A stretch of DNA of 4,312 bases, taken from the NCBI RefSeq assembly GCF_003334315.1, contig NZ_QOWR01000101.1; one strand, written 5' to 3'. The DNA comes from Escherichia coli (GTDB lineage: Bacteria > Pseudomonadota > Gammaproteobacteria > Enterobacterales > Enterobacteriaceae). The translations under genes and the position numbers were made by a program. This document shows, piece after piece, positions 3,184 through 3,544 of the stretch (within the stretch, counting starts at the first letter, position 1; the number at the start of each line of letters is the position of its first letter). The notes below the pieces were generated by a model. The model was not told the DNA's origin, ran no database searches, and saw only the letters and a program-made list of their open reading frames with translations.

Positions 3184-3501
3184 AAGCATGTTTCTGGCGG
3201 TCATAGCTCTATCGGCAAAGCGATATTTGCCATGGCGCGTCACAGTTCTGTTGAATGGGTTAATGGGCAGGAGGGTAACACCAGATGGGGAGGAATAATA
3301 AGAAAAAATCTCTCCCAGGAAGCTATCGTTGAAAAGCAATGTGACAGATATTCCATCTGATAAAAAGAATTATGGTTTAGCAGGAGCGCATTGTTGAGCA
3401 CAATGATGTTGAAAAAGTGTGCTAATCTGCCCTCCATTCGGCTGTTTCTTCATCGTGTCGCATAAAATGTGACCAATAAAACAAATTATGCAATTTTTTA
3501 G

Positions 3502-3537
3502 TTGCATGAACTCGCATGTCTCCATAGAATGCGCGCT
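3502..3537 (+). promoter_or_regulatory. Sigma70 promoter of the thrU-tyrU-glyT-thrT-tufB operon: -35 TTGCAT (3502..3507), 17-bp spacer, -10 TAGAAT (3525..3530), GC-rich discriminator GCGCGCT (3531..3537); AT-rich upstream tract (about 3465..3500) resembling an UP element / FIS-binding upstream activating region.
   Basis: Hexamers and spacing read directly; the GC-rich discriminator and AT-rich upstream region are typical of stringently controlled, FIS-activated stable-RNA promoters; sits 8-20 nt upstream of the first tRNA. Confidence 0.7.
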
Positions 3538-3544
3538 ACTTGAT

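Follow-up and report, generated by a model that had tools for sequence, protein, structure and literature searches.

The promoter of the Escherichia coli thrU(tufB) operon and its FIS-dependent upstream activator are already known, entered the textbooks around 1990, and belong to the class of rrnB P1 and tyrT. The work on the activator was reportedly carried out by Bosch, Nilsson, Vijgenboom and Verbeek between 1987 and 1991. In rrnB P1, FIS site I is centred at -71. Divergent promoter pairs of the malEp-malKp and ilvY-ilvC type, in which two units are transcribed away from an intergenic control region, share their regulator sites. On the other side of the thrU operon lies coaA, the gene for pantothenate kinase, control of which is currently thought to be essentially feedback inhibition of the protein. 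To our knowledge, transcriptional control of this enzyme is essentially unexplored. The start site of coaA is already in RegulonDB, under the promoter coaAp. This entry presumably originates from Song & Jackowski 1992 (J Bacteriol 174:6411).

The DNA analysed here contains the very same thrU(tufB) locus, and its promoter and upstream activator show no differences from the described system. For coaAp, the extended -10 description and the deep conservation come from the present analysis. Taken together, the spacer between coaA and thrU very likely consists of two separate sigma-70 promoter modules, each beside its own gene, one of the FIS/stable-RNA type for thrU and one of the extended -10 type for coaA.

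Organization of the locus

The window, i.e. the whole analysed stretch of 4,312 nucleotides, was identified by its 100% identity to E. coli genomes and by the K-12 annotation as the E. coli murB-birA-coaA / thrU-tyrU-glyT-thrT-tufB locus, with the following genes.

214-1242: murB
1239-2204: birA
2233-3183, minus strand: coaA (pantothenate kinase), with its ATG at 3183
3545-3620, plus strand: thrU (tRNA-Thr), followed by tyrU, glyT, thrT and the start of tufB

The spacer from the coaA ATG at 3183 to thrU at 3545 measures 361 bp and has an A+T content of 58%. Many E. coli chromosomes match window positions 3100-3700 at 100% identity, and the region was present in 5426 out of 5426 complete genomes. 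Annotation of K-12 MG1655 gives the same genes, with coaA as b3974, thrU as b3976 and nothing annotated between them. Published coordinates were converted by subtracting 4,171,843 from the NC_000913.3 position; an offset of 1977 was used to pass from U00096.2 to U00096.3 and was fixed by the thrU transcription start site (TSS) at A3538. Within the spacer, two SNPs (3314 and 3436) distinguish the strain of the window from K-12, and neither touches a promoter element. A search with Rfam covariance models returned the four tRNAs only, with no match within 3184-3544 at E <= 1.

Conservation was evaluated in an alignment of 64 distinct Enterobacteriaceae spacer sequences. This resulted in two conserved islands, 3264-3310 (0.90) and 3463-3544 (0.8-1.0), separated by sequence at 0.41. 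An earlier note, made from the letters of this DNA, had held that the 361-bp interval must contain both promoters, and both were located there. All sequence features that it described were found where it had placed them; which of them are promoter elements is a separate matter that is taken up below.

The thrU(tufB) promoter and its upstream FIS site

The core of the tRNA operon promoter is made up of four elements.

3502..3507, plus strand: -35 hexamer TTGCAT, 100% conserved in the 64 sequences
3525..3530, plus strand: -10 hexamer TAGAAT after a 17-bp spacer, conservation 0.95, with TAAAAT as the sole variant
3531..3537, plus strand: GC-rich discriminator GCGCGCT from the -10 to +1 (GCGCGC at 3531-3536), invariant in the aligned sequences
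3538, plus strand: TSS of the operon (A), 8 nt after the -10 hexamer and 7 nt before the 5' end of the mature tRNA-Thr

When both strands of 3150-3560 were scanned with a weight matrix, TTGCAT-17-TAGAAT was the top match at 10.2 bits. Mendoza-Vargas 2009 lists a 'thrU -7' TSS with 17 reads, quoted with the same two boxes and 17-bp spacer and flagged as known, and Romero 2014 lists a class I forward TSS at U00096.2 4173404, equivalent to window position 3538. The promoter proposed in the earlier note, TTGCAT-17-TAGAAT with a GC discriminator, is thereby borne out by two TSS datasets at 3538 and by a core that is 95-100% conserved. Mendoza-Vargas 2009 also contains a two-read 'thrU -302' TSS that falls ambiguously at window position ~3243 or ~3445, and the -35 box quoted for it, aatgATGTTGAAAaagt (3402-3418), is inconsistent with its listed position. 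The perfect palindrome ATGCAA-N8-TTGCAT at window 3488-3507 has the -35 hexamer of thrU as one of its arms.

Upstream of the core, one FIS-type site, an A/T-rich region and two further FIS-like sequences were distinguished.

3460..3474: GCATAAAATGTGACC, candidate for FIS site I, with its centre at -71 of thrU, 12/13 to the FIS consensus, the best match in the spacer
3479..3501, plus strand: A/T-rich, UP-element-like region at -59..-37, recognized from its A+T content, conservation ~0.8-0.9
3440..3454: candidate, weaker FIS-like 15-mer GGCTGTTTCTTCATC, centred at -91, 10/13, partly conserved
3408..3422: candidate FIS-like 15-mer GTTGAAAAAGTGTGC, centred at -123, 11/13, of patchy conservation

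A scan of the spacer for FIS sites, which the earlier note had proposed with a position weight matrix, was run as a symmetric FIS-consensus score and gave 3460-3474 as its best spacer match; the 12/13 scored by GCATAAAATGTGACC is reached at only 2 out of 4298 window positions. The G-N13-C pattern is found at the exact -71 site in all 78 of the 78 loci with a delimitable spacer, as well as in Pantoea and Paramixta (Erwiniaceae), and the site reads GCRCAAAATGTGAGC in most genera. A Fis site covering GCATAAAATGTGACC had been predicted at 3456-3479 by Mendoza-Vargas 2009. Experimental FIS binding and activation at the thrU(tufB) upstream region are cited in the literature from Bosch 1990 and Verbeek 1991, and a contribution of FIS to growth-rate control of thrU from Emilsson & Nilsson 1995; 'thrU-87' is used in the literature as an experimentally verified natural Fis site. 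Judging from sequence match, position and conservation, the footprinted FIS site or sites would correspond to 3460-3474.

No other stretch of the window is as AT-rich as the AT block at 3465-3500, with 81% A+T. Segments of 36 nt with at least 80% A+T number 5 out of 4277 in the whole window, and all five start at 3462-3475. The earlier note had pointed to this block as the place where FIS and UP elements would be expected, which agrees with the FIS-type site at -71 and with the FIS binding in the literature. The left edge of the block is taken up by the FIS site, and what remains (-59..-37) is UP-like A/T-rich DNA with a T6 tract (3494-3499) as well as the palindrome's ATGCAA arm. Compared by eye with the distal UP consensus, the block gives a partial match, with a T-tract in the proximal part instead of an A-tract. 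We infer that the A/T-rich DNA at -59..-37 may function as an UP element.

Hexamers spaced by 16-17 bp together with a TSS mapped 6-8 nt after the -10, as in stable-RNA sigma-70 promoters of the rrnB P1 type, are found at thrU, and at the sequence level so are the FIS site near -71 and the GC-rich discriminator. The thrU-tyrU-glyT-thrT-tufB operon would be transcribed from a stable-RNA-type sigma-70 promoter with +1 at A3538. FIS bound upstream would bend the DNA and help RNA polymerase, leading to growth-rate- and growth-phase-dependent expression, with the weaker sites at -91 and -123 possibly adding to the upstream region. The GC discriminator would be expected to render the promoter sensitive to stringent control.

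Further features overlap this region. An imperfect inverted repeat, GCATAAAATGT / ACAAATTATGC, brackets the FIS site (window 3460-3491). NtrC and FIS have related HTH domains. In vitro genomic SELEX gave an NtrC peak of 63% intensity at U00096.2 4,173,336, corresponding to window ~3470 and hence to the FIS site/AT block; the peak may reflect cross-recognition of the FIS site. A CRP site, AAATGTGACCAATAAAACAAATTA, was predicted by Mendoza-Vargas 2009 at window 3465-3488, centred at ~-62.5 from the thrU +1, with a perfect TGTGA half-site (3468-3472) that overlaps the FIS site.

The coaA promoter

On the opposite strand, the elements assigned to coaA lie within and downstream of the second conserved island.

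3265, minus strand: coaA TSS (C), RVS_(II)-4173131 in Table S2 of Romero 2014, TAP-enriched, 'overlap with RegulonDB: YES'
3280..3272, minus strand: extended -10 element TGT-TACCCT, with TG at -15/-14 and the hexamer at -12..-7
3296..3308, minus strand: weak -35 region, TTATTA (3301..3296) with an 18-bp spacer, following a T6 tract (3308..3303)
3184..3264, minus strand: coaA 5' leader of 82 nt, with in-frame upstream ATGs at 3204 and 3189

RVS_(II)-4173131 is the only reverse-strand TSS between coaA and thrU in Table S2 of Romero 2014. It is a class II site (TAP-enriched, with no visible coverage step), comes from one dataset and starts at C. As the overlap flag at U00096.2 4173131 indicates, RegulonDB coaAp has the same TSS, and its hexamers are weak and non-consensus. 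The TSS table of Kim 2012 and one supplementary file of ROSE contain no entries for the coaA-thrU locus.

The geometry around this TAP-enriched 5' end is canonical, +1 lying 7 nt downstream of the -10 hexamer (+1 = 3265). TGT followed by TA(C/A)CCT is present in 64 out of 64 distinct sequences, so that TG at -15/-14, A at -11 and T at -7 are kept throughout; the same element is found in Salmonella, Pantoea and Paramixta. The hexamer is conserved at 0.94 and the TG at 1.0. Against the consensus, the -10 and -35 hexamers each match at 3/6 positions. TTATTA was found in 50 of the 57 sequences in which the hexamer could be placed; 44 sequences have an 18-bp spacer and 13 a 17-bp one, the difference being due to a 1-nt indel in the variable linker 3288-3292. 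In Erwiniaceae the -35 region is generic T-rich sequence.

We propose that coaA is transcribed from a weak extended -10 sigma-70 promoter with a poor -35 and a T-tract, starting at C3265, possibly with additional minor starts elsewhere, and yielding an 82-nt leader; these elements are where RNA polymerase would be expected to make its contacts. Mean conservation of the leader is 0.53 and its predicted fold is modest (z = -2.05; 4 out of 200 shuffles fold as well). The earlier note had described a leader of about 180 nt that includes the in-frame upstream ATGs. The length has to be revised to 82 nt, and the ATGs do lie within the leader.

Some further features of the coaA 5' region were recorded. 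The coaA frame is open upstream to a TTG at 3339 on the minus strand, passing the ATGs at 3204 and 3189, and public gene calls for the protein vary between 318, 368 and 424 aa. The segment ATGCTTATG (3189..3181, minus strand) is more than 90% conserved, and no obvious Shine-Dalgarno sequence precedes the ATG at 3183. A T6 tract at ~-44..-38, immediately upstream of the -35, is conserved in both promoters of the spacer (3303-3308 on the minus strand, 3494-3499 on the plus strand).

Invariance of the coaA core

The conservation of 0.90 in the coaA block extends over 47 bp (3264-3310) and includes non-consensus bases, namely the CC of TACCCT and CCTGCCCATTGT. Beyond the hexamer, the GC-rich discriminator CCTGCC and then CATTGT are near-invariant, and the core TGnTACCCTCC-GC-CATTGT persists into Erwiniaceae. 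The coaA core is conserved beyond what a weak promoter obviously requires. Both the extent of the block, with its non-consensus bases, and the persistence of the core in Erwiniaceae argue for an additional function, such as an operator or a kinetic feature (ppGpp/DksA, or iNTP sensing via CCTGCC) through which coaA would be regulated rather than constitutive. A half-palindrome of the GntR/FadR type, TGGT-N3-ACC, overlaps the coaA -10 in E. coli and points the same way. The dyad is however kept in only 39/64 sequences, and its polymorphic base is position 3 of the -10 hexamer, which fits a plain promoter. In addition, a literature search found no link of coaA to FadR or PdhR, and no inverted repeat was detected within the block in a search for such repeats. 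On balance we regard a second function of the block as unlikely, and the plain extended -10 promoter as the better account of it.

A related idea is that the near-invariant core (-45..+8) embeds an unrecognised control element, either a binding site for a repressor or activator or a sensor based on the discriminator, and this we consider quite improbable. If true, such a hidden element would set transcription of the rate-limiting enzyme of CoA biosynthesis. As transcriptional control of pantothenate kinase is essentially unexplored, the invariance of the coaA core is the one point here that may be worth an experiment.

Specific candidates for the block were tried and rejected. A GntR/FadR/PdhR-type operator at the coaA -10 reaches 7/8 specified bases in E. 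coli (TGGTGTTACCC) but fails on the limited retention of the dyad given above. The remaining candidates were compared by eye. For sigma-54, the GG and GC elements deviate by 2 from the required spacing. For sigma-32, E. coli does have CCCCATCT, yet the segment concerned (3288-3292) is the variable linker in other genera and no -35 lies at the right spacing. No match was seen for sigma-E, sigma-38 or sigma-28.

Independence of the two promoters

The thrU and coaA TSSs lie 273 bp apart, and the question arises whether the two promoters are coupled. The earlier note had suggested that they could share regulatory inputs, and coupling might be brought about by FIS bound in the upstream activator or by transcription-induced negative supercoiling from the very strong thrU promoter, with coaA sharing in the growth-rate inputs. 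The promoters are indeed divergent and that of thrU is strong, FIS-like 15-mers reach position 3415 (-150 from the coaA +1), and the NtrC genomic SELEX peak is evidence of in vitro binding of Fis-type HTH proteins to the spacer. FIS site I, however, has its centre at -71 relative to thrU and at -202 relative to the coaA +1, the latter being outside the usual activation positions, and no regulator site was found at a functional distance from both starts.

Comparison with relatives argues in the same direction. The length of the spacer ranges from 316 to 1091 bp across 78 species, and neither its length nor its content is conserved. In the loci with spacers of ~1.05-1.09 kb (L020-L027, L030, L032, L039, L040, L066, L072 and L076 of those compared) an ORF for a 195-aa GNAT-like acetyltransferase lies between the two modules on the coaA strand, as in Kosakonia, Atlantibacter, some Buttiauxella and others (e.g. 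L021, 1691-2278). Throughout, the distance between the thrU core and the tRNA is constant at 43 nt, and that between the coaA extended -10 and the ATG is 67-123 nt in 77 out of 78 loci. That each promoter keeps to its own gene despite a variable spacer indicates that the promoters behave as independent modules. The variable length, the inserted gene and the fact that each block stays with its own gene therefore speak against shared regulation, and we consider coupling of coaA to the thrU promoter highly unlikely.

The locus has in common with malEp-malKp and ilvY-ilvC that two divergent units flank an intergenic control region. Unlike in those pairs, the starts are here 273 bp apart, the sole strong regulator site fits one promoter, and insertions interrupt the layout in related genera; the divergent arrangement is thus not conserved among relatives. 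Sequence between the modules is unconstrained, and the ~150 bp concerned (3311-3460) would be filler, including the hexamers previously assigned to coaA. Two separate modules, a FIS-dependent stable-RNA type promoter beside thrU and an extended -10 promoter beside coaA, are the reading that we retain.

The 401-bp coaA-thrU spacer of Salmonella enterica has a called ORF of 57 aa (L082, 1176-1349) that matches no family and that may be the STM4141 of PMC6735719.

Other readings of the coaA side

The earlier note had placed the coaA promoter at 3369-3397, with transcription from about 3361.

3397..3392 and 3374..3369, minus strand: candidate hexamers TCAACA and CATAAT with a 17-bp spacer, a consensus match at chance level

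According to this proposal coaA is transcribed, from a main or a secondary upstream promoter, with a start near 3361 and a leader of ~180 nt. Among minus-strand hexamer pairs of the spacer, TCAACA-17-CATAAT comes closest to the consensus (9/12); it scores 6.1 bits and ranks fifth overall in the weight-matrix scan; furthermore, the TSS datasets used are shallow for low-abundance mRNAs. Matches of this kind are however what chance provides. The window holds 5 sites of that quality in the consensus scan, compared with 6.4 +/- 2.3 in shuffled sequences, and 5 sites at or above the score of TCAACA-17-CATAAT in the weight-matrix scan, compared with 7.1 +/- 2.8. Conservation is 31% for TCAACA and 24% for CATAAT, which makes this the least conserved part of the spacer, and other genera have unrelated sequence at the position. 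No reverse-strand TSS is given in Romero 2014 for the interval from 4173131 to the thrU promoter, nor for the surroundings of 3361. The recorded start at 3265 is 96 nt away from the proposed one, and the recorded promoter lies outside the range 3340-3544 to which the divergent promoter region had been assigned. A coaA TSS far from 3361, which the earlier note itself had named as the result that would speak against its candidate, is what the published TSS data give. Transcription of coaA from TCAACA-17-CATAAT is accordingly very improbable. The case carries a caution: on the coaA strand the best hexamer match was misleading, and the real promoter, which fits the consensus less well, was revealed only by conservation and TSS data.

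That the conserved coaA block encodes a small plus-strand protein of 15 codons is scarcely credible, for although E. coli has a strong Shine-Dalgarno-like AGGAGG (3269-3274) 10 nt before the ATG at 3285, this ATG is ATT, AAT, TTG or GTA in many genera, 1-nt indels follow it, the frame over the conserved GGAATAATAAGAAAAAA differs between genera, neither start codon nor frame is conserved, and no forward-strand TSS is listed upstream of it in Romero 2014.

Additional observations in the tRNA-tufB operon

Two observations were made downstream of the spacer. The palindrome GAGAGAAGCTCTC at window 3773-3785, in the tyrU-glyT spacer, was flagged as terminator-like on the minus strand. At window 4074, 27 nt upstream of the tufB ATG, Romero 2014 lists a class II, TAP-enriched forward 5' end (U00096.2 4173940), which could mark a secondary start within the operon or have arisen by processing.
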